Virus record (IMG/VR): IMGVR_UViG_3300042987_004038
Span: 1 to 64,000 of that record
DNA length: 64,000 nucleotides
Strand: one strand, 5' to 3'
Source of the DNA: a virus
Shown here: in pieces, positions 425 through 20,297 of the stretch
Numbering within the stretch: position 1 is the first letter of the stretch
Layout of the letters: each line of letters opens with the position of its first letter
Notes under the pieces: generated by a model
What the model was told of the DNA's origin: nothing
The model's input: the letters and a program-made list of their open reading frames with translations, nothing else
Database searches by the model: none
Made by a program: the position numbers and the translations under genes

Positions 425-492
425 CATCCTGGGCCCCGCCCGCCTCGTGTGTGGCGGGGCCACCGTGTTATGATGGGGGCATGGAGGCGGTC

Positions 493-672
493 ATGAAGCC
501 TGGTGATCTCGTCCGCATCAACTACGGTGCGCCCCAGTTCCGCGATGAGCTCCACGGCCAGATCGGCATCATCATCAGGCACATCGTTGGATACTCCTAC
601 GCTGTCTTTGTCGGAGGACAGTGTGTCCACTTCCACAAGCATGTCCTGGAGCCTGTCAATGAAAGCGGGTGA
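493..672 (+). CDS. Small SH3/KOW-like 'GDLV' family protein
   Basis: MKPGDLVRINYG...GQIGIII; RBS GGAGG at 483; promoter motif upstream. Confidence 0.7.
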   Translation: MKPGDLVRINYGAPQFRDELHGQIGIIIRHIVGYSYAVFVGGQCVHFHKHVLEPVNESG

Positions 673-838
673 TCTCGTGCGTTGCAAGATCTGGGGCAAG
701 ACGGGCCTCATCCTCGTCGCCCCGAAGAGCCACGGTTACGACAATCGCCCAGGCAAGCTCCTCAAGGTGCTTTGGTCGGATGGCACTCAAGCCATGGAGC
801 ATATCAACAACGTGGAGGTCATCAGTGAAGCCGGGTGA
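659..838 (+). CDS. Small SH3/KOW-like 'GDLV' family protein
   Basis: MKAGDLVRCKIWGKTGLIL...KVLWSDG; overlaps the previous gene by 14 nt. Confidence 0.7.
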   Translation: MKAGDLVRCKIWGKTGLILVAPKSHGYDNRPGKLLKVLWSDGTQAMEHINNVEVISEAG

Positions 839-1034
839 TCTGGTCGCAACCTACAAGTCTGAATGGTTCATCATCGACAAGGGCGAGCGGTGGGTGACGC
901 TGCCCGAGGATGATACACTGATCGTGCTTGATGCGAGGTATCATCTCCGTGCGGTCCATCCCATCCACGGGCCGGGTCACTTCCCAGGGATCAATCCCGA
1001 ATACAAGGCGCGGGTGATCAATGCAGCCGGGTGA
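825..1034 (+). CDS. Small 'GDLV' family protein (GTG start)
   Basis: (M)KPGDLVATYK; RBS GGAGG at 814; 14-nt overlap with the previous gene. Confidence 0.65.
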   Translation: MKPGDLVATYKSEWFIIDKGERWVTLPEDDTLIVLDARYHLRAVHPIHGPGHFPGINPEYKARVINAAG

Positions 1035-1215
1035 CCTCGTCCGGTTCTGGACGTCCATCAACGGCTGGGAGCACGCGCTCATCCTCGAGTTCGTGCCGCA
1101 CATGCAGGACGGACTGGAGGCGCTGGTCCTCAGAGCTGATGGGCGACAGGTGTTCAAACGACCCGACGACCTGGAGGTGGTGCGTGAAGAAAGAAGTGCC
1201 CACGCTGGTGGGTGA
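1021..1215 (+). CDS. Small 'GDLV' family protein
   Basis: MQPGDLVRFW...DLEVV; 14-nt overlap with the previous gene. Confidence 0.7.
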   Translation: MQPGDLVRFWTSINGWEHALILEFVPHMQDGLEALVLRADGRQVFKRPDDLEVVREERSAHAGG

Positions 1216-1444
1216 GCTCTACACCGTCCATGCCCCGATCTCGGGCTACTGCTACGCGTGGCCCCCAGGCGGTGTGTCGGTCGACCTCAAGCACGGCGAC
1301 AAGGTGCTCTACCTGGGCAAGGATCTGACGCAGAGCGCACAGCGGAACCAGCCCATCTGCGCGGTCCTCACCCACAAGGGGCGCCTCTTCATGGACCAGC
1401 GGTGGCTGGCACACGTGCCCGCTGCGGGCGATGGTGTAGAATAG
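1184..1444 (+). CDS. Small SH3-like hypothetical protein (GTG start)
   Basis: RBS GGAGG at 1173; LVGELYTV...LKHGDKVLYLG. Confidence 0.6.
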   Translation: MKKEVPTLVGELYTVHAPISGYCYAWPPGGVSVDLKHGDKVLYLGKDLTQSAQRNQPICAVLTHKGRLFMDQRWLAHVPAAGDGVE

Positions 1445-1457
1445 GGAAGCGGAGGCA

Positions 1458-1670
1458 ATGATGCACAGCTGGCAGTCTGGTGATCTCGTCCAGATCAAGC
1501 GGGGCGTCACGGGCACAGGTGACGTTGGGATGGTCGTCGGCCCCTCGGTGGCGTTCTACATGAACTCAAGCGTGACGCTGCTTGCTGTCCTCTTCAGCGA
1601 CGGCATGCGTTCAGTCCACCCAGGTAACCTGCAGAAGCCGGACGGTAGGACCCGCAGGGCAAGCCGGTGA
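1458..1670 (+). CDS. Small 'GDLV' family protein
   Basis: WQSGDLVQIKRG...GMVV...VLFSDG; promoter and RBS upstream. Confidence 0.7.
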   Translation: MMHSWQSGDLVQIKRGVTGTGDVGMVVGPSVAFYMNSSVTLLAVLFSDGMRSVHPGNLQKPDGRTRRASR

Positions 1671-1879
1671 AGAAGGGCGACCTCGTACAGATCCGTGTCG
1701 GGTGCGGTGACGAGGGCCGTGTCGGTGTCCTAATGCATGATGCCGGGACGCCCTTCACCCACTGCATGGTGCTCTTCCCAGAGGGTATGATGGGGATTAA
1801 CAGGTACTGGCTAGATGTGCTCGACACCCGTGCAAGGGACGACTCGCGTGATATGATAAGCATACCCAAGGAGGCATGA
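1667..1879 (+). CDS. Small 'GDLV' family protein
   Basis: (M)KKGDLVQIRVG...VGVL...VLFPEG; GTGA overlap. Confidence 0.7.
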   Translation: MKKGDLVQIRVGCGDEGRVGVLMHDAGTPFTHCMVLFPEGMMGINRYWLDVLDTRARDDSRDMISIPKEA

Positions 1880-2595
1880 TGGAAGGTTGGGATCTCGAGA
1901 AGGTGAAGGAGCTGAAGGCGCAGTACGAGGCTGCGGGTGTCACCTCGACCTCGTCCTACCACTTCCTCAGCTCGATCGTGCAGGCGGGCACACCGCCCCG
2001 CGGCCGTGGGATCGGGTGGCTCCAGCAGCTCCTTGCCCAGGGATCTCCGGGCGACATCAGGTCTGTGATTGCCAGGGCGGAGCACCTTCACAAGGAGGTC
2101 TTCACCGCCGACCTCGAGCGGATCATCCAGATGATCAAGAGCAGCGGGCGGGTCGAGAAGTGGCAGCACGAGAAGATCGACGCGGTTGAGGCTGCGCTCG
2201 AGAAGGGATGGATCGAGGTGACGCCTGAACAGCTCACTGTCCTGCGGCAGATTCAGGAGGTCGCCAAAGGCCGCCACACCTGGTGGATGAATCGCGCTGC
2301 TCAGCACCGCAGGTTCATGCTCATCTACGGCGGCCTGTCCCAGAGCAACCGCATGCTGCAGGCCGACTTTGACTTTGTCACCGAGCTCTTCGGTCCCGCC
2401 TACCGTGAGCTCACCAAGCCAAGCTTCGCTGAGGGTGACCTCGTGAGGGTGAAGAGCCGGATGCCCCAGGTGATCCTGGGCGTGGTCACCTCCCCGCCCA
2501 GGGTGGTTGGTGATGATATCTGCTACGACATTCTCGCGGGTGACGTGGGCATCATCCCAGTGGCTCGGGACAAGCTCCTGAAGAGGCTCAAGTGA
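1876..2595 (+). CDS. Hypothetical protein with C-terminal SH3/KOW-like domain
   Basis: Helical N-terminus; C-terminal FAEGDLVRVKSR...LGVV; RBS AAGGAGG. Confidence 0.7.
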   Translation: MMEGWDLEKVKELKAQYEAAGVTSTSSYHFLSSIVQAGTPPRGRGIGWLQQLLAQGSPGDIRSVIARAEHLHKEVFTADLERIIQMIKSSGRVEKWQHEKIDAVEAALEKGWIEVTPEQLTVLRQIQEVAKGRHTWWMNRAAQHRRFMLIYGGLSQSNRMLQADFDFVTELFGPAYRELTKPSFAEGDLVRVKSRMPQVILGVVTSPPRVVGDDICYDILAGDVGIIPVARDKLLKRLK

Positions 2596-2861
2596 AAGAG
2601 GGTGCGCTGGTCTGGTTCGAGCTCCACCGCAATGAGTGGCACCCGGGGGTCGTGATCGGTTACCGCCCGCAGGTGCATGGCGGAAGCAGGTCGCAGTCAT
2701 ACTGGGAGGGATCCTACCGTGTGAATGAGTTCGTGACTGAGCCCATCCGCGGCTCGTGCCTCGTCCAGCTCCTCGACGGCGAGGGTGTAGGCTGGGTGGA
2801 CGAGCGGAGCCTCAGAACGCCAGAGGAGCACGAGATGGCGAGCGCCCAGGGTGCGAGCTAG
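2592..2861 (+). CDS. Small SH3/Tudor-like protein
   Basis: (M)KEGALVWFE...WHPGVVIG...WVDERSLR; GTGA overlap. Confidence 0.65.
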   Translation: MKEGALVWFELHRNEWHPGVVIGYRPQVHGGSRSQSYWEGSYRVNEFVTEPIRGSCLVQLLDGEGVGWVDERSLRTPEEHEMASAQGAS

Positions 2862-2946
2862 CGAGCGCTCAGCTTCTGCGCGATATCAAGCGCCCAGGGC
2901 ACTCGCTGTCTAGCGCCCGCCATCTTGCGCCCAGCATCTTGCGCCC
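2842..2946 (+). repeat. Iterated GCGCCC/GCGCTC boxes upstream of a cassette promoter
   Basis: Copies at 2842, 2865, 2890, 2913, 2927, 2941; the last three are 14 nt apart. Confidence 0.6.
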
Positions 2947-3000
2947 GTGCGCAGCGGGTTAATGCCTGTTACAATCTAAGGGCAAGGAGGCATAAACCAT

Positions 3001-3252
3001 ATGGGGCAGTGGTCAACCGGTTCCCAGGCGCGCACTGGCTCATTCTCTGAGCCCGCGGGCGGCGGCATCGCCGATGCCTCCAATGACGGCTACTACCACG
3101 TCTGGTTCTGGCCGGGCGGGAAGTCTGAATGTGAGTGCGCCGCCTTCCGGGTCTTCGGCAAGGGGTGCAAGCACATCACCGCGGTGAAGGAGTCGATCCG
3201 CAAGGGAGCCCCAGCTGAGGGGGTGATCTCCTTCTTCGGCGGCAGCAAGTGA
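3001..3252 (+). CDS. SWIM zinc-finger protein
   Basis: CECAAF...CKHI (CxCx(n)CxH); promoter and RBS upstream. Confidence 0.75.
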   Translation: MGQWSTGSQARTGSFSEPAGGGIADASNDGYYHVWFWPGGKSECECAAFRVFGKGCKHITAVKESIRKGAPAEGVISFFGGSK

Positions 3253-3591
3253 CGGGAAGGGCCGCGATTCAGACGCGGCCGATCGGATCACTCAGCTTTC
3301 AGCGCAGGGCGTCAGCTGCAGTCCCTCTGACGTCATCGTCAGCCTCGAGCTCACCCTTCCGCTGCCGCCACCGCAGCTCGCTCTTGACGGTCCCCTTGAA
3401 GGGTGACCTCTCTTCAGCACCTCTTCAGAAGGGCAGCTTGAAGTTGGCTAGTTTCGATGGCCCCTCCATCCTAGCCCCTGCGACCGAAGCCCGCACGACG
3501 GGCAGCTCGCCCACCGCCGCAGCTCGACACCCGTGCAAACCGCCCACCCCCATGGTATGATGGGCGGGCAACCAACCACACTGGAGAGACA

Positions 3592-3810
3592 ATGACCCCG
3601 ACCCCGTTCGAACAGGCAGCCCGCAACGGTGCCACCCTCTACGGCAACATGATCGCAGCCTACAGCGTGAACGCCCAGATCCACCAGCTCATGCAGGAGG
3701 AGGCTGAGCTCAACCGCCAGGGCGGCGGCGCTCCCGGATACTACGAGGTCGCCTCGATCGGCCTTCGCTGGTCTGAACTTACCACCGCTTTCACCTACGG
3801 GGAGGCTTAA
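3592..3810 (+). CDS. Hypothetical protein
   Basis: Promoter at 3532, RBS GGAG, high-GC3 codons. Confidence 0.65.
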   Translation: MTPTPFEQAARNGATLYGNMIAAYSVNAQIHQLMQEEAELNRQGGGAPGYYEVASIGLRWSELTTAFTYGEA

Positions 3811-3812
3811 TC

Positions 3813-3992
3813 ATGGGACCCATCTCTGCGCTCGCCGCCGTTGCGGGCATCTACACCTCCATGCTCTGGCTCACCGCTCGCCGTCTGAAGCAGGTGACCG
3901 AAGCCTTCGTCCGTCGCGAGGCTGAGATCGATGCGAAGGAGCAGGAGCTCCTCAAGAAGATGCACCAGAGCGCCCGCCCAAACGAGTTCTAA
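3813..3992 (+). CDS. 59-aa membrane-anchored coiled-coil peptide (not in ORF track)
   Basis: MGPISALAAVAGIYTSMLWLTARRLKQ...; RBS GGAGG at 3801. Confidence 0.6.
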   Translation: MGPISALAAVAGIYTSMLWLTARRLKQVTEAFVRREAEIDAKEQELLKKMHQSARPNEF

Positions 3993-4049
3993 TCGTGCGC
4001 GGCCCGGGTGCGGTGATACAATGGGCAGGCAACTAACCAAGGAGACAAC

Positions 4050-4214
4050 ATGAACACGATCATCCTCTTCCTCGTCGGCCTCTTCAACGTCGCGAAGGCC
4101 CCCACCCTCGAGGGCCACGTCTACACCGGCGGCCTCGAGGCGGAAGCGATCTACGTCCCGGCCGGCTGGGAAGGACCGGTCGTCGCCCTGCCCCTGGACG
4201 AGACGGTGTTCTAA
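4050..4214 (+). CDS. 54-aa protein with hydrophobic N-terminus (not in ORF track)
   Basis: MNTIILFLVGLFNVAKA...; promoter at 3994, RBS AAGGAG. Confidence 0.65.
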   Translation: MNTIILFLVGLFNVAKAPTLEGHVYTGGLEAEAIYVPAGWEGPVVALPLDETVF

Positions 4215-4264
4215 CCCGTGCGGGTCCTCCGCAACCTGATACAATATAGGAGCAAGGAGGAATC

Positions 4265-4468
4265 ATGGCACACACGAATCGCCACACGCTGAAGGCCACA
4301 GCGCTGAAGAAGCTTGACACCCTCAGGCTTCTCCGCGGCTTCGATCGAGCTGCCCACTTCGCCGCCGGTGGCACACCGGCCGACTGGCGGGGTGAGCACA
4401 GCGTCCGACCGGACAAGCGGCGGGAATCAAATCGGAAGGCATGCCGGGGTCCGGTCAAGGACCTCTAG
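4265..4468 (+). CDS. Small basic hypothetical protein
   Basis: Promoter at 4217, RBS AAGGAGG; K/R-rich. Confidence 0.7.
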   Translation: MAHTNRHTLKATALKKLDTLRLLRGFDRAAHFAAGGTPADWRGEHSVRPDKRRESNRKACRGPVKDL

Positions 4469-4569
4469 CACGCCACTCGGAGATGGCACGATCTGGAGAC
4501 CATATCGGCAATGCCGACGGTCGTGCGATCCCCTAGTTGCGTGGTAGAATAACGGGGCAAGGAGGCACA

Positions 4570-4920
4570 ATGGACTGCAAGCACTGCGGCATCGAGTTCA
4601 ATCCGGACACCCCTCAGAAGCGCTCGGTCGGCGGCCGGATCAACGAGTGCCCGGACTGTGTGGAAGAGCTGGGCACCGAGACAGCGGTCCCCTATGCGGG
4701 GGTCGCGGCGGGCGACGGAAAGGGCGTCGGCGTCACCGTCCTCGCCTTCGGGTCGAACAAGGACCGCGAGGCCTATGTGAAGGCGTGGCGATCCAACAGC
4801 GGACAGAACGTGGGCAAGGCCTGTCAGATGTCCAACAGTAATAGTTACATGGGCAATCTGAAGTTCAAGAAGGTGGGTGAGTCCGGCTCGATCGGAACGA
4901 ACCACAAGGGCCGCCTCTGA
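4570..4920 (+). CDS. Zinc-ribbon protein
   Basis: CKHC...CPDC; promoter at 4522, RBS AAGGAGG. Confidence 0.7.
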   Translation: MDCKHCGIEFNPDTPQKRSVGGRINECPDCVEELGTETAVPYAGVAAGDGKGVGVTVLAFGSNKDREAYVKAWRSNSGQNVGKACQMSNSNSYMGNLKFKKVGESGSIGTNHKGRL

Positions 4921-4970
4921 CCCGTGCGACGGACCGGTGCGGTGGTAGAATAACGAAGCAAGGAGGAATC

Positions 4971-5309
4971 ATGGAATACGTCACTCTCACTCGGGTCAAG
5001 GACCCCTCCAAGAACCGCTGGTTGGCGGCTGTCAGCCGAGACTACATGGTCCCGCGGAATGCCACTGTCTTCGCTGGATGGGGCCCCTACGACGACCGAA
5101 TCGCGGTCTGGGTGGGTGAGGACGGCAGGGGATTCGGGGCGATCGACAAGGACCCGGCGGGTTATGTCGAGCTCTCCGCTGCGATTGATCGCGGTGACCT
5201 CGACTTCGAGTCGAACCATCCGGGCGTCGATGAGTACGAGTTCGAGCCAGGCACCTTCGACCCTTCCGATGAGACCATCGAGTTCGAAGTGGGGTCCTCC
5301 CTCTTCTAG
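4971..5309 (+). CDS. Hypothetical protein with acidic C-terminus
   Basis: Promoter at 4923, RBS AAGGAGG. Confidence 0.7.
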   Translation: MEYVTLTRVKDPSKNRWLAAVSRDYMVPRNATVFAGWGPYDDRIAVWVGEDGRGFGAIDKDPAGYVELSAAIDRGDLDFESNHPGVDEYEFEPGTFDPSDETIEFEVGSSLF

Positions 5310-5366
5310 TCTCGTGCATCGAGACCGGTCAGTGATAGAATAACCAAGCCAACCAAGGAGATAACA

Positions 5367-5594
5367 ATGACCGTCGCTGAACTGATCAAGGAACTTCAGG
5401 CTCTCCCCGGCGACATGAAGGTCCAGGTCCTCGACTCGGAAAGGGGGGATCCCGAGGACATCGTCCAGGTCTCCCGGGGTTCCTGGGGCGGGCCGCTCGA
5501 CGACGACGAGGACCTCGACCTCGACAGCATGATGAACGGCGAGTTCATCCAGGACGACGAGAACGGTCAGATCGCGGTGCTCGTCATCTGGTGA
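5367..5594 (+). CDS. Small acidic 'MTVxELIxxL' type phage protein
   Basis: MTVAELIKELQALPGDMKV; N-terminus resembles 13805..14014. Confidence 0.7.
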   Translation: MTVAELIKELQALPGDMKVQVLDSERGDPEDIVQVSRGSWGGPLDDDEDLDLDSMMNGEFIQDDENGQIAVLVIW

Positions 5595-5673
5595 TCCCGT
5601 GCGACGGACCCAGACAGTGATACAATAATCAAGCAAGGCGGCGGTGATGGACACCGCCCTGGAGGACGGAATC

Positions 5674-5901
5674 ATGGATCAAGACATGGCTCAGCTCGCT
5701 GACATCCTCGTGGATTGGTGCGACATGGATCTCGAAGGTGACAGCTTCGCCGGGGCGAGCTCGACGGTCGTCGCCCAGACGATGGTCAAGTGCCTCGCCT
5801 TCACCCTGTCGCACGATCCGAATGCCCGCGAGGTCCTTGATCGGATCGTCCGCAAAGAGATGGCTGAGATCCGGGCTCGGTTCGAGGAATACGATCGCTG
5901 A
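5674..5901 (+). CDS. Hypothetical protein
   Basis: RBS GGAGG before ATG 5674; leader hairpin GGCGGTG/CACCGCC. Confidence 0.65.
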   Translation: MDQDMAQLADILVDWCDMDLEGDSFAGASSTVVAQTMVKCLAFTLSHDPNAREVLDRIVRKEMAEIRARFEEYDR

Positions 5902-5973
5902 TCCCGTGCGAATGAACGGGAACCTGGTACAATAATCAAGCCAATCACGGCAACAAACGAAAGGAAGGAAACA

Positions 5974-6297
5974 ATGGCCAAGGACATCAAGATCTCTGAC
6001 GTGACGGTGGTGGACGGAAAGGCGGTGGTCTTCGGCACGGTCGGTGACCAGTCGTTCCAGGCCTCCCAGCTCCAGTGGGGCGGCAAGGTCCTCATGCACG
6101 TCACCGGTGGGGACTTCGATCGTGGGACCCGGATCGCCATCGGACATGCGGCCAAGAAGGCCGTCCGTTCCCAGGGCATCGACCTCACCCCGGCCCCCCT
6201 CAAGCGCCCCCGGAAGGCGAAGGAGGCTGAGGTGGTCGCTTCGGAAGAGCCGGTGGTCCTCGCTGAGGTGACCTTTGAGGCGCAGATCGAGGGCTGA
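5974..6297 (+). CDS. MAKDI-family paralog 1
   Basis: Shares WGxKVLMHVxxxDxDRGTRIAIGHAAKKAV...LKRPRKA with 7566 and 12947. Confidence 0.8.
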   Translation: MAKDIKISDVTVVDGKAVVFGTVGDQSFQASQLQWGGKVLMHVTGGDFDRGTRIAIGHAAKKAVRSQGIDLTPAPLKRPRKAKEAEVVASEEPVVLAEVTFEAQIEG

Positions 6298-6330
6298 GCC
6301 CTTCAGGGCTAGGTGGGCGCTGGACATCCA

Positions 6331-6378
6331 GCGCTCATCTCGCGCCCAACTTATCGAGCGCCCGCCATCTAGCGCCCA
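6331..6378 (+). repeat. Second GCGCCC box array upstream of a cassette promoter
   Basis: Copies at 6331, 6342, 6358, 6372; AGCGCCCGCCATCTwGCGCCCAGC also at 2912. Confidence 0.6.
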
Positions 6379-6429
6379 GCTTCGTGCGCAGCGAATGGCC
6401 CGTGATACGATGAACAAGCAACGGAGGCA

Positions 6430-13804: not shown

Positions 13805-14014
13805 ATGAAGATCTCTGAACTGATCGCGATTCTCACGACCACCCTCGAGACCGACGGCGACCTCCCGGTGATGATCCCCACCCTCTACAACTCCTCGGTC
13901 CTGGACGAACCCCAGGATGTGGCGGTCCTCTTCGGGGACAGCACTGATCCGGACTACTCTCAGCCCGAAGATCACCCCTCCGGCCGGTACCTCTTCATTG
14001 GGGGACAGGCCTGA
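13805..14014 (+). CDS. Small 'MKISELI' type phage protein
   Basis: MKISELIAILTTTLETDGDLPV; promoter at 13756. Confidence 0.7.
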   Translation: MKISELIAILTTTLETDGDLPVMIPTLYNSSVLDEPQDVAVLFGDSTDPDYSQPEDHPSGRYLFIGGQA

Positions 14015-14069
14015 GGGTCCCGTGCGAATCCGAAATCAATTGGTATAATGAATAGGCCAAGGAGGACAA

Positions 14070-14375
14070 ATGGCTCTCAACCTCACCATCATCCGGAACA
14101 CCAACCCCTCCACCCTCACCATCACCAAGAAAACCTGCATCAACTTCAACCCCCGCATTCCCAACCTTGTTTCCCGGCATCCCGGCCCCTACAATTCCTA
14201 CCCCATCAATCCTGATCCCTCCTCCCACCTGAACCCCGGTGATCAAGTCCAGCTCCTGGCCATCCTCACTGCCAAGCAAGCCGGCTATGCCCACCCCCAG
14301 CTCCACCTCAAAACCCAATCCGGCATTGAGTTCTACTGTGATTCCTCTGATATCTCTCGATTCCTTTCCCTCTAA
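14070..14375 (+). CDS. G-poor MALxLT-family paralog 2
   Basis: Paralog of 13407..13721; promoter at 14021 nearly identical to that at 13356. Confidence 0.75.
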   Translation: MALNLTIIRNTNPSTLTITKKTCINFNPRIPNLVSRHPGPYNSYPINPDPSSHLNPGDQVQLLAILTAKQAGYAHPQLHLKTQSGIEFYCDSSDISRFLSL

Positions 14376-14382
14376 CCACTCC

Positions 14383-14408
14383 GGCCCCGGCCTCACCGGC
14401 CGGGGCCT
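14383..14408 (+). terminator. GC hairpin after MALxLT paralog 2
   Basis: GGCCCCGGCC-TCACC-GGCCGGGGCC. Confidence 0.55.
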
Positions 14409-14457
14409 CGTGCGATCCTGACAGCTGATGGTAGAATAATCTGGCAAGGAGGCAAAC

Positions 14458-14604
14458 ATGGCGGCTCACCACTTCATCGATCAGATCCTCGCGACCAAGG
14501 CCCAGGGGCTCGACACCGGGGTGGTCATCTCTCGTGCCCTCTGGTCCGGTCTCGACCTCGACACGATCGAGGGGCTCCTCCAGATGATCGAGGTCGAGGG
14601 CTAG
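14458..14604 (+). CDS. 48-aa hypothetical protein (not in ORF track)
   Basis: MAAHHFIDQILATKAQGLDTG...; promoter at 14409, RBS AAGGAGG. Confidence 0.65.
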   Translation: MAAHHFIDQILATKAQGLDTGVVISRALWSGLDLDTIEGLLQMIEVEG

Positions 14605-14711
14605 GCCCGTGCGACCCCACGGTCGGGTGGTAGAATAGGAGCACAAGGAGACAAAATTCTGGTCATCATCAAGATCGTAGCCGCAAACCTCTTCTTCGTG
14701 GGAAAGTAATC

Positions 14712-14792
14712 ATGGCTGGCATCGGTATCTTGGCCGGACTTCTGTTTATGCACTTCTTCTGCAAGGACAAGGAGACTCATGGAGACAAGTAA
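14712..14792 (+). CDS. 26-aa membrane peptide
   Basis: MAGIGILAGLLFMHFFCKDKETHGDK. Confidence 0.4.
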   Translation: MAGIGILAGLLFMHFFCKDKETHGDK

Positions 14793-14955
14793 CGCCCCCA
14801 CCCCTCGCCAGATCGCAGAGAACCTCTGGCTCCTGAACGAGATGGAGCCGGACGACCTCTTCTCGCTGCAGGCCGCCCTACAGGATGATCCTGATCCGGC
14901 TTTGGACGACCTCTGGACCCTGGTCCAAGTGCGGACCGGATCACTCGAACATTAA
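14779..14955 (+). CDS. 58-aa acidic protein (not in ORF track)
   Basis: METSNAPTPRQIAENLWLLNEMEPDDL...; RBS AAGGAG. Confidence 0.6.
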   Translation: METSNAPTPRQIAENLWLLNEMEPDDLFSLQAALQDDPDPALDDLWTLVQVRTGSLEH

Positions 14956-14986
14956 CAATCTCAGCGCTGGAATGTAAAGTGAAGCC

Positions 14987-15262
14987 ATGATCACAGCAGA
15001 TCTCGCAATCGCAGCAGCCGTGGCACTTGTCTCGGCCTCCATCGTTCTCACTGTCTCAGCCCTGATGTCGCTGAGGCGGTTTGAGAAGCTCTATGTGATG
15101 CAGATGCAGACGATGACAGAGATCATCTACGCGATTGCGGCGTCCCGCGATGATTATGATGACGATGACCCAACGGACGAGGAGGAGCACCCACGCCCCG
15201 AGCTCGCCCCGGTGATCCCGTTCAGGGGTGGTCCCGACGGGAAGCCAGATGACCCAGCATAG
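14987..15262 (+). CDS. Membrane-anchored protein with acidic tail
   Basis: N-terminal hydrophobic helix; DDYDDDDPTDEEE; ends near VIPFR. Confidence 0.6.
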   Translation: MITADLAIAAAVALVSASIVLTVSALMSLRRFEKLYVMQMQTMTEIIYAIAASRDDYDDDDPTDEEEHPRPELAPVIPFRGGPDGKPDDPA

Positions 15263-15273
15263 AGAGGAATAGC

Positions 15274-15504
15274 ATGAACCAATTTGAGATCCGTTTGACC
15301 CCGCGCACCGATAAGAACGGGGATGAGTACCTGATCGGAGGAGCCGATCTGCCCGCCCTGGTCGATCTCCGCGATGCCACCTTCGTCGTCTTCTACCCGA
15401 AGGACGAAGAGGCTCTAAAGCCAGGCGAGCGCCCCCGGGCCACCCTGGTGATCCGCAAGCGGCAGCCGCAGACGGGCAACACCAAGCGTGGCGAGGATGA
15501 GTGA
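15274..15504 (+). CDS. Hypothetical protein
   Basis: RBS GAGG; beta-rich pattern. Confidence 0.6.
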   Translation: MNQFEIRLTPRTDKNGDEYLIGGADLPALVDLRDATFVVFYPKDEEALKPGERPRATLVIRKRQPQTGNTKRGEDE

Positions 15505-15671
15505 TGGACCGCGCAGGGAAGCGCCAGATTGTGATCGAGCGGCGGCCTGACCAGCCACCAAGCGATGAGACCCCGATCACCCCGGATGATCCCCGCGCTG
15601 AGCCTGACCTCTTTGAGGCGATGCTCACTGATGCTGAGGAATTTGATTGGGAACAGGTGATCACCTTCTAG
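15504..15671 (+). CDS. 55-aa acidic protein (not in ORF track)
   Basis: TGATG coupling; MDRAGKRQIVIERR...EEFDWEQVITF. Confidence 0.5.
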   Translation: MDRAGKRQIVIERRPDQPPSDETPITPDDPRAEPDLFEAMLTDAEEFDWEQVITF

Positions 15672-15680
15672 GGAGGCGCG

Positions 15681-15893
15681 ATGGAGCCGGAGACCGAGAT
15701 ACCAGGGCTGATTGCGATCAGCGAGACACACAACCCGGGCGGCGGGTCGACGTTCACCTTCGAGATCGAGGATGACAAGGTGGACCAGTTCTTTCAGGCC
15801 TTCGGTCTCCAGCCCGGCGATCAGGAGGGATTCCAGCGGGTGGTGATCGAAGCGATTGAAGCGATGATCGCCCGCGGAGCGAGGAACCAATGA
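15681..15893 (+). CDS. Hypothetical protein
   Basis: RBS GGGAGG. Confidence 0.6.
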   Translation: MEPETEIPGLIAISETHNPGGGSTFTFEIEDDKVDQFFQAFGLQPGDQEGFQRVVIEAIEAMIARGARNQ

Positions 15894-16309
15894 CTGAAGA
15901 GAAGGACAAGGCGCTGTGTGCCAAATACCCAAAGATCTTCCGTAACAGGCGGGGTGATCCGAAGCAGACGCTCATGTGCTTCGGCTTCGAGCATGACGAC
16001 GGCTGGTATGACATCATCGACACCCTGTGCCACACAATCCAGCATCACCTTGACTGGAAGCGCGGGATGGACGAGTTCAAGTCTCTGCCCGACGAGGCGT
16101 GGGATGAGAGTCACCAGACGGTCGCTGTGCAGGTGAAGGAGAAGTGGGGCGGGCTCCGCTTCTATGTGAATAGCAGCGACCACTACATCGACGGCGCAAT
16201 CGCTCTCGCTGAATCGCTCAGCCTCAGAACCTGTGAGATCTGTGGTTCACCTGGGAAGCCCCGCGGCGGGGGCTGGGTTCGCACTCTGTGCGACGGTCAC
16301 TTCAAGTGA
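15890..16309 (+). CDS. Conserved phage protein with C-terminal zinc finger
   Basis: GWYDII...QVKEKWGGLRFY...CEICGSPG...TLCDGH. Confidence 0.7.
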   Translation: MTEEKDKALCAKYPKIFRNRRGDPKQTLMCFGFEHDDGWYDIIDTLCHTIQHHLDWKRGMDEFKSLPDEAWDESHQTVAVQVKEKWGGLRFYVNSSDHYIDGAIALAESLSLRTCEICGSPGKPRGGGWVRTLCDGHFK

Positions 16310-16336
16310 TAGGATAGATGTAGGAAGGGAGGTTCC

Positions 16337-16675
16337 ATGAACTTCAGGATGTCGAAGATGGCTGAGGGGATCCTGGTGGTCGAGGTGGAGGACAGGGACA
16401 CCGGGCCCATCGTCGACCGGCTCTCTGACCAGAACCACGGCTATGCGATCCGCGGCATCGAGTCCCCCGTGGCAGTGATCGACGGGCGGATCAGCAAGAA
16501 GAAGTGGTGCACTCCCGACCACCTGCTGGCGATCGAGGCCCACGAGCTGGGTCACATCCTCGCTGACACGGATGACGAGCCCACCGCCGAGCGGAAGGCG
16601 ATTGAGATCCTCGAGGAGCACGGCTTCATCGGCGCCGCACAGATCCTGCGAGAGCGCGGTGTCCTGGTAGAATAG
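16337..16675 (+). CDS. HExxH zincin-like metallopeptidase domain protein
   Basis: AHELGHIL followed by a downstream Glu (EPTAE). Confidence 0.6.
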   Translation: MNFRMSKMAEGILVVEVEDRDTGPIVDRLSDQNHGYAIRGIESPVAVIDGRISKKKWCTPDHLLAIEAHELGHILADTDDEPTAERKAIEILEEHGFIGAAQILRERGVLVE

Positions 16676-16692
16676 GGTCACGGAGAGGAACA

Positions 16693-17136
16693 ATGCTCAA
16701 GATCTTGCTGACCGCCGGTGAGATGAACCAGGTGAAGGCGCTCCTCGACGGAGGCTACCGCAACAAGATCGAGGCGATCAAGGTGGTCCGCGGCGCCTCC
16801 CGTCACCAGACCGCTGACCTCTTCGATCCGTCCAGGATGCGGCCGGGCGTCGGACTGAAGGAGGCGAAGGAGGCGGTCGAGACGCTGATGGCTGACATGG
16901 GCATGAAGCACCCCGACGGGTCCCCTGCCCTCCACCCCGCGAACCCCTCGGGCTGCATCGTCCCCTTCCAGCCGATCAAGAGCATCACCGTCAACATGGG
17001 CGGCGGTGATGTGGTCGTCGACATGGAGGAGATGGCGCTCAAGTTCAGCGAAGGCCTCACCTCCCTGCCCCTCGCCGATGTGAAGCGCCTCTTCGACCTC
17101 TGGCAGAGGATCAAGGACTGGGAGGACGGGAAGTAG
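16693..17136 (+). CDS. Protein with ribosomal L7/L12 C-terminal-domain-like region
   Basis: NKIEAIKVVRGA...VGLKEAKEAVE matches bL12 CTD signature KIxxIKxVR...GLKEAKxxVE. Confidence 0.7.
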   Translation: MLKILLTAGEMNQVKALLDGGYRNKIEAIKVVRGASRHQTADLFDPSRMRPGVGLKEAKEAVETLMADMGMKHPDGSPALHPANPSGCIVPFQPIKSITVNMGGGDVVVDMEEMALKFSEGLTSLPLADVKRLFDLWQRIKDWEDGK

Positions 17137-17187
17137 AGCCCGTGCCTCTCCTGTCACACATGGTAGAATAGGATCATGGAGGACAGA

Positions 17188-17319
17188 ATGGACAACGTCA
17201 TCTCGGGTTTCCACCAGCTCATGAACGTCGATCACATCGCCTGGTCCGATGGTCCCGGCTGGCTCCTCGCCCTTGTGATTGGATGGGTCGTGATGCTCGC
17301 GGTCGCGGCGCGAGCCTGA
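17188..17319 (+). CDS. 43-aa membrane peptide (not in ORF track)
   Basis: ...GPGWLLALVIGWVVMLAVAARA; promoter at 17141. Confidence 0.6.
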   Translation: MDNVISGFHQLMNVDHIAWSDGPGWLLALVIGWVVMLAVAARA

Positions 17320-17350
17320 TACATTAGCCCGCGGGGCGGTAGGATGTGGT

Positions 17351-17662
17351 ATGCTATCGATCGGTGCAATTCTCTGGGGAGTCATTGTCGTCTGGGACAT
17401 GTGGCGGGCGCTGCGGGCAAATGATCCCACCTGGGCCCTCATCCTCCGCGGGTGTTGGTCCCTGTTCACAGTGCTCCTGATCTCTGGGGGCTGGAGCCTC
17501 ACCTTCCTGCTTGCCAATGTTCTGCTGTACTCAGCCACCCTCGTGATGGTGGGTTTGTCGCTCTTGGTGATGCCACCTCCGACAGCCCGCGACATGGCCC
17601 GGGTGGTGATGGAGATCGGACTTGCAATCGCTTTCGCAGCGCTCTGCTGGGCGCTCAGCTAA
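17351..17662 (+). CDS. Multi-pass membrane protein
   Basis: 3-4 hydrophobic segments. Confidence 0.55.
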   Translation: MLSIGAILWGVIVVWDMWRALRANDPTWALILRGCWSLFTVLLISGGWSLTFLLANVLLYSATLVMVGLSLLVMPPPTARDMARVVMEIGLAIAFAALCWALS

Positions 17663-17672
17663 GGAGGAGAAG

Positions 17673-17888
17673 ATGGTCGGTGAAGTTGTAACTCTCAAGC
17701 AGAAGTATGTCACCCGCTTCGGCACCGAGTGGCCCAAGGGGACAGAGCTGGAGGTTGAACAGAAAGTGAGGCAGGGATGGCAGATCGGCTACAAGACCCG
17801 GGACGGCCGGGTGGGAACACAGAGCATCCTGAAGGAGGAGCTCCCGCCCGAGGTAGCGAAGATGCTCGAATCACATGGCAAGCTGTAG
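17673..17888 (+). CDS. Small SH3-like protein
   Basis: RBS AAGGAGG; MVGEVVTLK...KGTELEV. Confidence 0.6.
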   Translation: MVGEVVTLKQKYVTRFGTEWPKGTELEVEQKVRQGWQIGYKTRDGRVGTQSILKEELPPEVAKMLESHGKL

Positions 17889-18005
17889 CGGTCTGGCTGC
17901 TTGACACGGCAGTGAAGGCGGGAGCGATCCTGTTCTGGAACACAGTGATCACGGTGCTTCTACGATACTTCGATATGTGATATGTACAGACATCGAGGAG
18001 ATCGA

Positions 18006-18389
18006 ATGAGAATCACAGCATCGCAGTTGAGAAAGATCATCAAGGAAGAGCTGAGTAGAGCGGTGAATGAAGGCTACCGTGCTTTTACACCAGTTGAGAG
18101 TCTGGTTGATTATTTTTTCAGGTATCCCATGTTTGTGGAGCGTCTTGGTCTTCGCCCTCACGATTACAGAGATCCCGACCTTGGCAGTCGCATCGCCGCG
18201 TGGATGAAGAGTAGCGATGAGTTCTTAGGTTATGAGCCCGAGGAATACGATGAGGCTGCGATGGAGATCGCCCTCCGGCTCGGTGATCAGTTCCGCGGTA
18301 GCGAAGAGGGAAGGGCGGCATTCAAGCGCATGAAGAGCCACTACGAGCGTGACATCGAGGATCCATACGGTCCTGAGTCAGACTACTAA
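18006..18389 (+). CDS. MRIT-leader family protein
   Basis: MRITASQLRKIIKEELSRAVNE; acidic body. Confidence 0.75.
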   Translation: MRITASQLRKIIKEELSRAVNEGYRAFTPVESLVDYFFRYPMFVERLGLRPHDYRDPDLGSRIAAWMKSSDEFLGYEPEEYDEAAMEIALRLGDQFRGSEEGRAAFKRMKSHYERDIEDPYGPESDY

Positions 18390-18524
18390 TCCTATCACTA
18401 GGGCGCCACGGACCGCAGGAGATGCGATCTGGCGGCGCCCGATGTGCATCACGGGGTTGGGATCCCGATGCAAGGGGCGCGATCTGGCGCTGACCTGGGC
18501 CATAGATAGAAGGGGAGGCACAAG

Positions 18525-18773
18525 ATGGCGATTGAGACAGGGACGGCGGTGAGAACAGCATCACCCGACAAATGGAAGACATGGGGCTGGATAAACATGA
18601 ACGGAGAGATCCGTCGCGCGTTGCTAGAGCCAGACAGGATCTACACTGTGACAATCGCTTCTTCTCGATTCAAGAAGGCTGATGGAACTTACCAGTCTGT
18701 GACCAAGATGACCTGTCCGGTGACAGGTGTCGAGCTAATGGCTGAGAGATCTACGATCGTCGAGGATATGTAG
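18525..18773 (+). CDS. Hypothetical protein
   Basis: RBS GGGGAGG. Confidence 0.6.
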   Translation: MAIETGTAVRTASPDKWKTWGWINMNGEIRRALLEPDRIYTVTIASSRFKKADGTYQSVTKMTCPVTGVELMAERSTIVEDM

Positions 18774-18791
18774 CCAGAAAGGAGATAGACC

Positions 18792-19376
18792 ATGAGAATC
18801 ACCGAGAGCCAGCTTCGCCGCATTGTCCGCGAGGAGCTAAATGAGATGCGGAAGTCTGGCATCACGCTTCGCGTCAACCCAGAGACAGGCGAGTACGAGG
18901 AATCAGGGCTGGAGGATTTCCCAGGCGCCGGAGCGGAGCGAGCCCGCTACCAGAAAGCATCCCAGCATATGTTCAGGCGACCCAAGATCACTGACCCTGA
19001 CCTGGGCGACAAGTTCGAAAGGATGATGGCGAGCCTCGACCTAGATGAGCCAGGGGAATACCTGCCATCGATGTTCACAGGCACTGCGGCTGACAATGTC
19101 GCTCGGTTCAATGACGAGATCTCCAGCAAGCTTCCCATGAAGGGAAGCATGTTTAAGCCTGCCAGGGGCTCAGTCAAAACTGATGACTTTGTTGGAACAT
19201 ATGAGATCAAACGAGTTCCGGGCGAGCCTGAATTGTTCGAGGCTAGCGTGATGAGAGGCGAAGATCCTGACACTGAAGCTGGTGTCGCCTCCGCTGATAC
19301 ACCCTACGAAGCCGTTATGAATGCCGTCGAGAATGCGAGCTACGGTCGCGGATCACCCTTCTACGGTAGCTTCTAA
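18792..19376 (+). CDS. MRIT-leader family protein
   Basis: MRITESQLRRIVREELNE. Confidence 0.75.
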   Translation: MRITESQLRRIVREELNEMRKSGITLRVNPETGEYEESGLEDFPGAGAERARYQKASQHMFRRPKITDPDLGDKFERMMASLDLDEPGEYLPSMFTGTAADNVARFNDEISSKLPMKGSMFKPARGSVKTDDFVGTYEIKRVPGEPELFEASVMRGEDPDTEAGVASADTPYEAVMNAVENASYGRGSPFYGSF

Positions 19377-19384
19377 CTCCACCT

Positions 19385-19408
19385 CGGGCCCCGTCACTGG
19401 GGCCCGAT
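19385..19408 (+). terminator. GC hairpin after 18792..19376
   Basis: TCGGGCCCC-GTCACT-GGGGCCCGA. Confidence 0.5.
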
Positions 19409-19464
19409 CTGTGTTCGTGCGCTGACACCTCCAGATGGTATGATGGTGAGGTAAGGAGGAAAGA

Positions 19465-19584
19465 ATGACCACCGACACCGCCATCTGGGGCACCGTCTCG
19501 ATCGCCGGCTCTCTCTTCATCGCCAATGTCGCAGCCCTCGTCTACCTCTCCGGGATCTGCCCGCTGATCAGCTGCCTCAACTGA
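19465..19584 (+). CDS. 39-aa membrane peptide (not in ORF track)
   Basis: MTTDTAIWGTVSIAGSLFIANVAALVYLSGICPLISCLN; promoter at 19416. Confidence 0.6.
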   Translation: MTTDTAIWGTVSIAGSLFIANVAALVYLSGICPLISCLN

Positions 19585-19641
19585 GGCCCGTGCGATCGTC
19601 GGCTGACATGGTAGAATAACCTCACAACCAAGGAAGACAAC

Positions 19642-19905
19642 ATGGCCGCCACCGAAGAGCAGATCGATCTCCACTCCTTCCACTCCGACGTCTACAAGGA
19701 GGTCTACAACATCCGGCCCCGCTGGCTCCGCCCGGAGGACCGGACGGTCGAGGAGTGGCGGTGGATGATCAGCCTCATGATCGAAGAGGGGCAGGAGATG
19801 GCCCGCCGCGAGGCTGAGCACGAGGCTGCTCACCGGGCCTGGGTGGCTGAGGTCACCGATCCCAGCCCGCTGCGGGTCCCGCTGGCCGCCTTCATGGTGG
19901 GCTGA
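19642..19905 (+). CDS. Small phage protein (SDxYKxxxxxRPR type)
   Basis: HSDVYKEVYNIRPRW; promoter at 19589. Confidence 0.7.
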   Translation: MAATEEQIDLHSFHSDVYKEVYNIRPRWLRPEDRTVEEWRWMISLMIEEGQEMARREAEHEAAHRAWVAEVTDPSPLRVPLAAFMVG

Positions 19906-19973
19906 GACCCGTGCGCCTCGGGCGCTGAATGGTATGATGGTGAGGCAAGGAACCACAGACCAAGGAGCTCAAC

Positions 19974-20297
19974 ATGGCCGCTGCAAACCTCCGCTGGACC
20001 TTCAAGATCACCTCCGTCACGACCTCGCCCCTGGGCACCACCGCGGTCTCCGGCATCGCCCGCGGCCCCGAAGGCCAGGAGCACCGCTTCGTGGCCACCG
20101 ACCGCATGGACCCCCGCTACCCGACCCGGTTCAAGGTGAACTGGAACGGGCTCCTCCCCCGGATGCCGAAGCCCGTCGGCCACGGTGTCCCCGAGGCCAC
20201 CCTGTCCGTGACCGAGGGGCACGACCCGGAGCTGCTGATCGGCCGCGGCGGTCGGGTGGCGATCGCCCGGATGTGCAAGGAGCTGGTCCACGGCTAG
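19974..20297 (+). CDS. ANLRW-family paralog 2
   Basis: Paralog of 8362..8694 with a similar 5' leader. Confidence 0.8.
   Translation: MAAANLRWTFKITSVTTSPLGTTAVSGIARGPEGQEHRFVATDRMDPRYPTRFKVNWNGLLPRMPKPVGHGVPEATLSVTEGHDPELLIGRGGRVAIARMCKELVHG

Follow-up and report, generated by a model that had tools for sequence, protein, structure and literature searches.

Why would a phage keep many small genes behind copies of one promoter-like element, and do those copies influence which genes it carries? The question is raised by the first 20 kb of the window, the whole 64,000-nucleotide stretch of a 96.8-kb contig that was analyzed here. The source phage is an uncultured jumbo T4-like myovirus of a deep lineage, with 40% portal identity to the nearest isolate. 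An earlier note read the region as an integron-like library of early effectors, built of self-contained cassettes joined at the promoter box. We give a probability of about 0.7 to another reading, in which the block is a hyperplastic set of host-polymerase-driven, probably early genes, shuffled via its promoter copies as in the PeSL cassettes of T4-type phages and kept GC-rich.

The repeated element and its genes

Each element reads box-N14-TGnTAnnAT and is followed by a short leader, a strong AAGGAGG ribosome-binding site (RBS), the start codon (a median of 21 nt from the −10) and one to six small ORFs. The CCCGTGCG box keeps a fixed distance from the −10, 14 nt before the TG, and the lineage-specific (C)CCGTGCG occupies exactly the position of a −35 hexamer ahead of an extended −10, TGnTAnnAT. 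Between 445 and 19938, (C)CCGTGCG-N14-TGnTAnnAT occurs in 36 to 38 + strand copies, against 0.05 to 0.8 expected. The total of 38 comprises 36 + strand sites with at most two mismatches to CCGTGCG-N14-TGnTAnnAT in that same interval (0.76 expected) and two sites with an 18-nt spacer (2946 and 3532). Exact matches to CGTGCG-N17-TAnnAT number 28, all on the + strand at 3994–19938 (0.05 expected); CGTGCG-N15-19-TAnnAT has 30, the single − strand match (3497) being at chance level. No further copy was found in the whole contig, whose other 76 kb holds one weak, lone match to CCGTGCG-N14-TGnTAnnAT at 56187; the AT-rich part is also nearly devoid of extended −10 sites with a gene start after them. 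CGTGCG itself lies in promoter context in 29 of its 34 + strand copies, with free copies at or below chance. The scan of the contig bears out the earlier view of a + strand motif limited to the array. Its details of layout also stood: 20 boxes (about 21 by its count) begin within 7 nt of an upstream stop codon, and spacer subtypes do recur, CGTGCGACGGA at 4923/5598, CGTGCGAATCC at 11780/13356/14021 and CGTGCGGGCGG at 6921/7255/8043/13756.

We infer promoter activity and early timing from the sequence of these elements. Since the −35-position box is unlike TTGACA and none of the elements reaches a canonical sigma-70 promoter score, the elements may depend on a factor from phage or host, and their class could be middle rather than early. 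Contrary to the earlier claim, the cassettes are mostly not self-contained: terminator-like sites are not enriched in the array (9 found, 9.9 expected), and a strong upstream hairpin precedes only about five of the window's elements. One gene follows 29 of the putative promoters, two follow 5, and five or six follow 4.

The features are given below, with reference to five independently assembled relatives (R1, L124, L090/L096, L101, and L102). Promoter elements are putative throughout.

1–20297, +, GC-rich hyperplastic block, part within contig; ~62% GC, GC3 82%, ~60–63 small ORFs
445–474, +, promoter element, 2 mismatches; box in GC hairpin loop; would drive six-gene GDLV-motif chain, 493–1879
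1829–1857, +, promoter element, CGTGCA variant
2946–2975, +, promoter element, 18-nt spacer
3532–3561, +, promoter element, CGTGCA variant, 18-nt spacer
3994–4022, +, promoter element; extra cassette at its leader in R1
4217–4245, +, promoter element
4522–4550, +, promoter element; another promoter in its place in R1 and L124
4923–4951, +, promoter element; left repeat, indel of cassette 4971–5309 (missing in R1, L124)
5313–5341, +, promoter element; right repeat, indel of cassette 4971–5309
5598–5626, +, promoter element; right repeat, 675-nt two-cassette indel relative to L124
5905–5933, +, promoter element; MAKDI copy 1, gene 5974–6297
6383–6411, +, promoter element
6921–6949, +, promoter element; junction of 194-nt insert (R1) and indel of cassette 6969–7250 relative to L102
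7255–7283, +, promoter element
7501–7529, +, promoter element; MAKDI copy 2, gene 7566–8003; junction of 715-nt two-cassette insert (R1)
8043–8071, +, promoter element; strong GC hairpin upstream (8016–8039); junction of 646-nt insert (R1)
8298–8326, +, promoter element; ANLRW copy 1, gene 8362–8694
8964–8992, +, promoter element; left repeat, indel of cassette 9010–9168 (missing in R1)
9174–9202, +, promoter element; would drive five genes, 9233–10445
10563–10591, +, promoter element
11263–11291, +, promoter element; left repeat, indel of cassette 11312–11515 (missing in R1, L096)
11503–11531, +, promoter element; right repeat, indel of cassette 11312–11515
11780–11808, +, promoter element; left repeat, indel of cassette 11830–11940; shared junction is the 9-nt box CCCGTGCGA
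11946–11974, +, promoter element; right repeat, indel of cassette 11830–11940
12294–12322, +, promoter element; left repeat, indels of cassette 12348–12635 (R1) and of two cassettes (L096)
12639–12667, +, promoter element
12882–12910, +, promoter element; MAKDI copy 3, gene 12947–13333
13356–13384, +, promoter element; upstream hairpin; MALxLT copy 1, gene 13407–13721
13756–13784, +, promoter element; strong upstream hairpin
14021–14049, +, promoter element; MALxLT copy 2, gene 14070–14375
14409–14437, +, promoter element; strong upstream hairpin
14608–14636, +, promoter element; ends the dense run, longer multigene stretch next
16287–16315, +, promoter element, CTGTGCG variant; within 3' end of gene 15890–16309
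16645–16673, +, weak promoter element, 2 mismatches
17141–17169, +, promoter element, CCGTGCC variant; would drive six genes
19416–19444, +, promoter element; terminator-like hairpin ahead (19384–19407)
19589–19617, +, promoter element; order of cassettes 19465–19584 and 19642–19905 reversed in R1
19910–19938, +, promoter element; ANLRW copy 2, gene 19974–20297; junction of inserts of 464 nt (R1) and 557 nt (L096)
20298–23001, +, transition from GC-rich to AT-rich; non-coding 20298–20787 (64% GC), then genes with GC3 0.51–0.62

The cassette ORFs are under purifying selection (concatenated dN/dS 0.33 at dS 0.38 over 3303 codons). No function was found for any of their proteins, and roles such as that of effector are assigned by inference. 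The paralogous cassettes described earlier, three MAKDI, two ANLRW and two MALxLT, are real. Behind this promoter type, the repertoire comprises 231 genes, with 83 families and 32 singletons, and 17 of 22 families are followed on the right by two or more different neighbours.

A GC-rich island

The most unusual property of the array, missing from the earlier note, is that it forms a GC island. The block is 62% GC and the genome 37%, with GC1/2/3 of.63/.44/.82 inside and.47/.39/.34 outside. The start of the contig cuts the block: in relatives, GC-rich DNA with boxes extends to both sides of the homolog of gene 2–424. The GC-rich state recurs in relatives and is kept near equilibrium, with a synonymous equilibrium GC3* of 0.76 in the block and 0.45–0.53 in neighbouring genes.

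The block makes little use of the A-ending and rare codons for which the lineage has its own tRNAs. Codons served by the 12 tRNAs of a relative occur at 40 per 1000 in the block and 199 per 1000 elsewhere, the tRNA set being that of a relative with a 78% identical DUF444 protein and not of the present contig, which is 28% complete. Most likely, in our view, the block is GC-rich because its genes are expressed before the phage tRNAs or because it must resemble host DNA. Temporal partition of codon usage was reportedly described for T4 by Cowe and Sharp in 1991. The block resembles such a partition in that one gene class has its own synonymous codon set, tied to the tRNA pool that would be available at the time. 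It differs in the extremity of the contrast (GC3 82% versus 34%) and in being spatially contiguous, in including non-coding DNA and in coinciding with the cassette array, with a timing that is presumed. Such partitions are known in phages (Mioduser et al. 2017, PMC5683454).

Alternatively, GC richness may stem from GC-biased gene conversion, or from escape at the DNA level from AT-targeting silencers or nucleases, and not from codon-tRNA adaptation. We consider this possible, if clearly the less likely account. Non-coding DNA and promoter spacers match the block average in GC (62–68%), a composition for which selection on codons cannot account by itself, and nowhere else is the genome as recombinogenic as in the block. 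However, GC3 at 82% exceeds non-coding GC, and A-ending codons are avoided (6%, versus 31% outside), with an avoided set that fits the relative's tRNAs. The two explanations can act jointly.

Gain and loss of cassettes among relatives

In the five relatives, cassette-sized indels start and stop inside the promoter elements. Relative to R1, 23 of 25 breakpoints fall within the 18% of the region that is taken up by elements (p=2.5e-15), although this clustering is inflated because BLAST segment ends are drawn to conserved islands, and gene-cutting indels would also be purged by selection. With intergenic DNA alone as the null, 18 of 18 breakpoints lie in elements where 64% would be expected (p=3e-4). 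L124, L090/L096, L101 and L102 repeat the R1 pattern. Two promoter copies flank each indel as direct repeats in the insert-bearing genome, and in the genome without the insert the flank alignments overlap by 6–54 nt. These comparisons support the reiterated, putative promoter element as a site of gene gain, loss and occasional movement. The claim that genes are gained, duplicated and shuffled at the promoter therefore stands for gain, loss and the occasional move (one cassette pair is in reversed order in R1) but not for free reshuffling, as the differences are mostly simple indels on a collinear backbone.

We propose that some 38 promoter copies would each drive one to six small genes, and that the element, repeated about every 350 bp in one orientation, would offer three short sequences: the box (8–15 nt exact), the −10 (9 nt) and the RBS/leader (10–17 nt). 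Recurring in one orientation, these would serve as portable homology. Two copies, in one genome or in co-infecting relatives, might then recombine or serve for template switching, which would delete, insert, duplicate or swap whole promoter-plus-gene units with reading frames intact. The pathway remains a proposal; a RecA/UvsX-type gene is present in two genomes of the lineage (G001 and G005), and an SbcCD fusion in the present contig. That the tracts of exact homology are short for a RecA-type process counts against this explanation.

A rather improbable alternative is that selection is merely a filter, with illegitimate recombination occurring anywhere and the survivors respecting gene boundaries. 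Breakpoints would then seem promoter-bound because nearly all intergenic DNA is promoter: elements contain 64% of intergenic nucleotides in 3.9–14.7 kb, the ORFs are under purifying selection, and the pull of conserved islands on BLAST ends acts in the same direction. Against this, the intergenic-only comparison still places every intergenic breakpoint in an element, direct element repeats flank each insert with overlapping flanks in the genome that lacks it, and the box-poor 14.8–19.3 kb shows divergence and irregular gaps but no clean unit indels.

It is very unlikely that a dedicated site-specific recombinase acts on the CCCGTGCG box, cutting out and inserting cassettes as in integrons. The box, as the longest invariant stretch, is the only junction shared (6–15 nt) in about five events, and of 23 breakpoints inside elements 11 fall at −8 to +10 of it (27% expected; p=0.025). 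Nevertheless, the crossover point varies within the ~55-nt element, at the box alone in about half of cases and elsewhere, at the −10 or RBS/leader, in events whose overlaps span 33–54 nt, so that the earlier view of the box as the junction is not supported even as breakpoints do fall at the elements. The box is never seen apart from a promoter element, and its spacing from the TG is that of a transcription element. A search of 517 kb from four related fragments, which cover 28–52% of each genome, turned up neither a tyrosine nor a serine recombinase (Phage_integrase or Resolvase), and no attC-like structure was seen, the elements folding no better than shuffles. Like an integron, the array strings together single-gene units that all point the same way, and its content varies among relatives. 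Unlike integrons (intI, attI, attC), it has no integrase in the sampled part of the lineage and no attC-like folded site, its junction position varies, and each unit has its own putative promoter where integron cassettes share one.

That the block is foreign, whether a product of misassembly, a piece of host DNA or a recent arrival from a GC-rich phage that still keeps its old composition, is largely refuted: its 62% GC is genome-like in all compartments, non-coding included, and several contigs break within it, yet at least five independent assemblies (R1, L011, L012, L022, and L090) join it to the AT-rich DUF444-SpoVR-PrkA region, its orthologs at dS 0.38 still hold the distinct GC3 equilibrium, no homolog of it turned up in 185,579 species genomes, and a leader-tagged paralog family lies on both sides of the boundary.

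Relation to known phage modules

The host-takeover module of SPO1 lies in a terminal redundancy and is rich in small early genes, each class of which comes with promoters and terminators. The block resembles it in its dense small genes and host-type promoters in one region of a large myovirus genome, with early timing here presumed. It differs in having no sequence relationship to that module and in being read from a contig fragment. We know of no cassette-level turnover reported for SPO1. The module is mentioned in work on PeSLs (PMC2839356).

PeSLs are the promoter-early stem-loop cassettes of the T4-type phages RB49/phi1, T4/PST, and KVP40/nt-1 (Arbiol et al. 2010, PMC2839356; Comeau et al. 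2014, PMC4122927). Mini-circles and promoter activity were shown for those of RB49/phi1, whereas the elements of the present array are putative promoters. The array differs further in having CCCGTGCG at the −35 position and not the sigma-70 consensus (TTGACA), in upstream DNA that is GC-rich and not AT-rich, in a convincing stem-loop at only about 10% of elements, in its far larger size and density (38 promoters in 20 kb), in forming a compositional island (62% versus 37% GC) and in its deep, uncultured jumbo lineage. Like PeSLs, it is built from a reiterated composite element that runs from an upstream stop codon through a promoter to a Shine-Dalgarno sequence and start codon, and that is concentrated in an ORFan-filled hyperplastic region of a T4-like genome. 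In both, the elements mark the ends of the insertions, deletions and replacements that set relatives apart, with homologous recombination between elements as the proposed mechanism. Of the precedents first named for this locus, PeSLs are the right one. Collectively, the data match PeSL-type modular shuffling in a new sequence guise and not an analogue of the integron.

The promoter class of the array

A box promoter is reiterated through the GC-rich block at the start of the window (about 1-20297) and, as the earlier note had claimed, is confined to it. The pattern CGTGCG-N17-TAnnAT occurs 28 times at 3994-19938, always on the + strand, against 0.05 expected. When up to two mismatches to CCGTGCG-N14-TGnTAnnAT were allowed, 36 + strand sites were found at 445-19938 and one weak site at 56187 (0.76 expected), and the remaining 33 kb of the contig contained no copy of the motif. 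Adding two sites with an 18-nt spacer gives the 38 copies that had been counted from the sequence alone. The aligned consensus reads ccCGTGCG-N14-TGgTAnaAT, about 6 nt, GCAAGGAGG, and then the start codon, with a median of 21 nt from the -10 to the start codon. Twenty boxes begin within 7 nt of an upstream stop codon, close to the previous estimate of about 21, and most promoters serve a single gene (one gene at 29 promoters, two at 5, and five or six at 4). The sets of small paralogs described earlier (MAKDI, ANLRW, and MALxLT, named by their N-terminal residues) and the recurring spacer subtypes were all found. Mostly, the description of the cassettes as self-contained did not hold, as terminator-like sites are not enriched (9 versus 9.9 expected). 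The element does not generally include a stem-loop: folding inside the promoter is no better than that of shuffles (-8.2 versus -8.9 kcal/mol), and a strong upstream GC hairpin accompanies just 7 of the 69 elements in the window and its closest relative, R1.

Every element has an extended -10 (TGnTAnnAT), and the -35 position, set by a 17-nt spacer, is occupied by CGTGCG instead of TTGACA. The box has no likeness to TTGACA, and a canonical sigma-70 scan recovered 0 of 38 elements. Within the block, 29 of the 34 + strand copies of CGTGCG lie in promoters; the promoter-free copies (five on the + strand and five on the - strand) are at or below the approximately 8 expected by chance. The fixed distance to the -10 and the lack of free copies beyond chance point to a transcription element, either a contact for sigma region 4 or an activator site. 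The same features speak against a recombination or Chi-like site that stands on its own. The GTGCG(A/G) core resembles the degenerate sigma-A -35 TTGCGA of mycobacterial promoters, which also lean on an extended -10 (PMC12288462); this is a resemblance only, offered as a lead, and whiB was absent from four related fragments. Conservation at orthologous promoters is 0.93 for the box and 0.91 for the -10 versus 0.65 for the spacer, values that are inflated by the choice of pairs by motif and are not used here as evidence.

Because the AT-rich part of the contig has next to no extended -10 sites followed by a gene start, the array carries its own separate promoter class. Judging from the host-type -10, the precedent of T4-type phages, and codon usage, this class would be early. 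For the AT-rich part, evidence of late promoters of the T4 type (TATAAATA) is suggestive at most: there are three + strand copies, which is no enrichment, and two of these precede a gene by 31-32 nt. Sites at this distance include one in the head-gene cluster at 95038.

Gain and loss of cassettes at promoter elements

Related loci were gathered by searching with the DUF444 protein that adjoins the block, which yielded 26 IMG/VR loci. The closest contig (89% DUF444 identity; R1 is two of its loci joined) has 33-34 boxes on one strand over approximately 18 kb. The arrays of the window and R1 are collinear, with 75-93% nucleotide identity, and are more than ten unit-sized indels apart. In the promoter-dense stretch at 3.9-14.7 kb, homology blocks end at -10 to +60 of a box start in 23 of 25 cases, an interval covering 18% of the region (p=2.5e-15), and under a stricter null that places breakpoints in intergenic DNA alone, 18 of 18 lie in elements versus 64% expected (p=3e-4); both figures carry the caveats that BLAST segments are prone to stop at conserved islands and that indels cutting genes are purged by selection. 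Four more independent relatives (L124, 92% identical; L090/L096; L101; and L102) have gained or lack whole units whose ends lie in elements. The claim that promoter elements are the junctions where genes come and go was thus borne out by element-bounded indels in five relatives.

In the genome holding an insert, two promoter copies flank it as direct repeats, and in the genome without the insert the alignments of its two flanks share 6-54 nt. The shared stretch varies: in approximately five events it is the box alone (CCCGTGCGA at 11780/11946; 10-15 nt at 12294/12882, 4923/5598, and 19910), and at 7501, 8043, and 6921/7255 it is the whole promoter and leader. Within elements, the box is somewhat overrepresented as an end point (11 of 23 versus 27% expected, p=0.025). 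Cassettes 19465 and 19642 stand in reversed order in R1. All three MAKDI copies occupy collinear positions in R1 and the window, so they are old duplications. The array has a collinear backbone on which unit indels are frequent and moves rare, and its duplications are old.

Scanning metagenome contigs with one promoter pattern gave at least 119 loci. At least 39 sources have three or more boxes; among the matches listed, almost all have a GC content of 58-66% and carry their boxes on a single strand. The first genes behind the box number at least 231 across all sources and fall into at least 83 families, 32 of them singletons among the matches listed. Overall order is conserved, and 17 of 22 well-sampled families (among the matches listed) have at least two different right-hand neighbors.

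A variable crossover point, direct repeats on either side of the inserts, and a box bound to its promoter all favor homology-driven exchange between reiterated elements, and not a site-specific reaction, as the process that would move the cassettes. The lineage encodes a RecA/UvsX-type protein and an SbcCD-type nuclease. Tracts of exact homology measure 8-17 nt, which is short for exchange of the RecA type, so microhomology annealing or template switching may be the actual route. One part of the interpretation in the earlier note is supported: promoter elements do bound the gain and loss of units. The integron analogy is not supported. Neither tyrosine recombinases (PF00589), the class of IntI, nor serine recombinases (PF00239) were found in the 517 kb of all four genome fragments (G000, G001, G002, and G005), cassette ends showed no consistent attC-type folded structure, and every cassette of the array has its own promoter, whereas integron cassettes are promoterless.

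A maintained GC-rich island in a jumbo phage lineage

The window covers the first 64 kb of one 96,830-bp virus contig encoding a T4-type portal, large terminase (TerL), baseplate wedge protein, fused SbcCD (gp46/47-like) nuclease, PhoH, a DUF444-SpoVR-PrkA triad, and many glycosyltransferases. CheckV completeness of 28% for this contig, and of 52% and 32% for relatives of 176 kb and 104 kb, indicates that the full genome is probably about 330 kb, that of a jumbo phage. Among cultured phages the nearest is Microcystis phage Mel-JY01, whose portal is the best match at 40% identity; jumbo phages of the RsoM2USA/XacN1 type are only distantly related, with a different gene order, and blastn with 6 kb of array sequence matched none of 50,697 phage records. 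R1 was the sole match to the MAKDI alignment in IMG/VR. The phage-borne triad (YeaH/YcgB/YeaG type) lies at 24797-29223; its PrkA gene has a GC3 of 0.57, above its neighbor genes, and Thermus phages, RsoM2USA, and huge uncultured phages have PrkA homologs at approximately 33% identity. Between the tail and baseplate genes, 38264-55015 is taken up by an extended series of genes for glycosyltransferases and methyltransferases.

With regard to the host, species genomes contained no MAKDI homolog, and promoter-pattern matches in them were at chance level. Recurrent matches in Novosphingobium were rejected as a host clue: the full 30-nt pattern falls coincidentally within conserved coding sequence of Novosphingobium and Tsuneonella (L181, L186, L187, L196, L206, and L218 in Novosphingobium; also L199), with no promoter array. 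An array fragment with three boxes and 60% GC was observed in a MAG labeled just "bacterium" (RGVZ01000596.1, 1411 bp), and GC-rich pieces of these AT-rich phages may be misbinned with GC-rich bacteria.

All gene calls within the block are on the + strand. Over 3303 codons aligned with the closest relative, dN is 0.125 and dS 0.379, and the resulting dN/dS of 0.33 identifies the small ORFs as real genes. Their products yielded no Pfam, PHROG, or PADLOC function except for a weak Rho_N/SAP-like C terminus in one MAKDI copy. The block is truncated by the contig start, since the homolog of gene 2-424 lies amid box-bearing GC-rich DNA in four related loci (L135, L067, L042, and L116). At 493-1879, six small paralogous genes with an N-terminal xxGDLV motif form a translationally coupled chain of overlapping start and stop codons (GTGA/ATGA), with a single promoter at 445 and no boxes between genes. 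The MALxLT paralogs (13407-13721 and 14070-14375) share only approximately 44% identity, although their promoters are nearly identical; a close R1 ortholog (94%) exists for copy 2 alone, and copy 1 has a GC3 of 0.61, below its neighbors.

GC content is 62% in the block and 37-40% over the remainder of the contig, and at codon positions 1/2/3 it is.63/.44/.82 and.47/.39/.34, respectively. This split, between 1-23000 and 23000-64000 (continuing to 96830), includes non-coding DNA (62% in the block, 65-68% in promoter spacers, and 36% in the rest) and recurs in relatives. A misassembled or chimeric boundary is excluded because GC-rich DNA abuts the AT-rich DUF444 region at the same junction in at least five independent assemblies from different samples (R1, L011, L012, L022, and L090). 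The array ends in a 490-nt non-coding stretch of 64% GC (20298-20787), after which the composition falls; 300-nt windows reach 76% GC at 20.05-20.65 kb, and R1 and L096 have inserts of 500-1000 nt at the position of this stretch. The MRITxSQLRxIIKEE paralog family crosses the boundary: this type of N terminus is common to several otherwise unrelated proteins (18006, 18792, 20788, 21799, and 22387-23502), which lack a CGTGCG promoter, and member 21799 has TATAAATA 31 nt upstream. This N terminus recalls the leaders that target T4 internal proteins to the capsid.

The block also avoids codons read by tRNAs of the lineage. The 176-kb relative G001 encodes at least 12 tRNA genes (Lys-UUU, Lys-CUU, Gln-UUG, Glu-UUC, Leu-UAA, Leu-CAA, Arg-UCU, Arg-CCU, Gly-UCC, Ile-UAU, Ile-GAU, and Tyr). 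In AT-rich genes, nine A-ending or rare codons decoded by these tRNAs occur 199 times per 1000, compared with 40 times per 1000 in the block. AGA accounts for 58% of Arg codons in AT-rich genes versus 3% in the block, ATA for 30% versus 1% of Ile codons, and A-ending codons overall for 31% versus 6%. Two tRNA clusters lie near one contig end of G001 (C1:164895-172820; L155-L158), and the GC-rich block starts at the opposite end, so in the full genome the tRNA genes may directly precede the block.

With L096 as the outgroup, synonymous changes polarized along the branches to the window and R1 give the block an equilibrium GC3 of 0.76 (current 0.88), and adjoining AT-rich genes tend to 0.45-0.53. 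The GC-rich state is therefore maintained, close to a substitution equilibrium of its own, and is not a fading import. Codon selection alone fails to explain the island, as the non-coding DNA of the block is also GC rich; selection at the DNA level or GC-biased conversion in a recombination-prone block may contribute. Codon usage is known to differ between early and late phage genes (PMC5683454), and our literature search did not find a contiguous maintained split of such size coinciding with a cassette array.

Relation to promoter-early stem-loop cassettes

The array is a hyperplastic promoter-cassette array of the type formed by the promoter-early stem-loop (PeSL) cassettes of T4-type phages, and is not an integron analogue; the reading in the earlier note is partly supported. 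For the PeSLs of RB49/phi1, T4/PST, and KVP40/nt-1, homology-driven exchange between elements has been proposed (PMC2839356, PMC4122927), and the shuffling mechanism itself is thus already in print; for RB49/phi1, promoter activity and excised unit circles have been demonstrated. As with PeSLs, the array occupies a hyperplastic ORFan region of a T4-like genome, its motif is confined to that block, and indels and replacements between relatives are bounded by motifs. In contrast to PeSLs, the array as a rule has no stable stem-loop in or beside the promoter, and lacks the AT-rich tract upstream of the -35 (its flanks and spacers are 62-68% GC). Of the two parts of the sigma-70-type promoter in PeSLs, the array has a -10, in extended form, and at the correctly spaced -35 position it has CGTGCG in place of the consensus. 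What is new relative to PeSLs is a noncanonical, lineage-specific -35-position box, the absence of a regular stem-loop, and a maintained GC-rich island that avoids the codons of the lineage's tRNAs, in a jumbo phage.

A more far-reaching model seems to us very improbable. In it, the CCCGTGCG box would be a private address common to a phage pool and no ordinary -35 contact, recognized by host RNA polymerase only after remodeling by a phage-delivered factor. The box would also be a preferred crossover point, and the GC-rich, host-codon block a dedicated exchange compartment, from which promoter-tagged genes would pass among phages that are otherwise unrelated, with their expression confined to this context. 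A candidate for such a factor is a leader-tagged, putative Alt-like ADP-ribosyltransferase encoded directly after the array.

In sum, viewed as a PeSL-type array, these findings extend a form of shuffling, published so far for a small number of cultured T4-type phages, to a deep jumbo lineage that is uncultured and often met in public metagenomes (at least 119 loci). The shuffling principle requires just a reiterated regulatory element, with the sigma-70 consensus and the stem-loop being dispensable. The ORFan families behind one promoter type, at least 83, are candidates for host-takeover or anti-defense functions. Together, the array and the extreme, maintained compositional split in one genome provide a clean natural system in which to ask whether first-expressed genes are written in host codons because phage tRNAs are not yet available or whether DNA composition itself matters.
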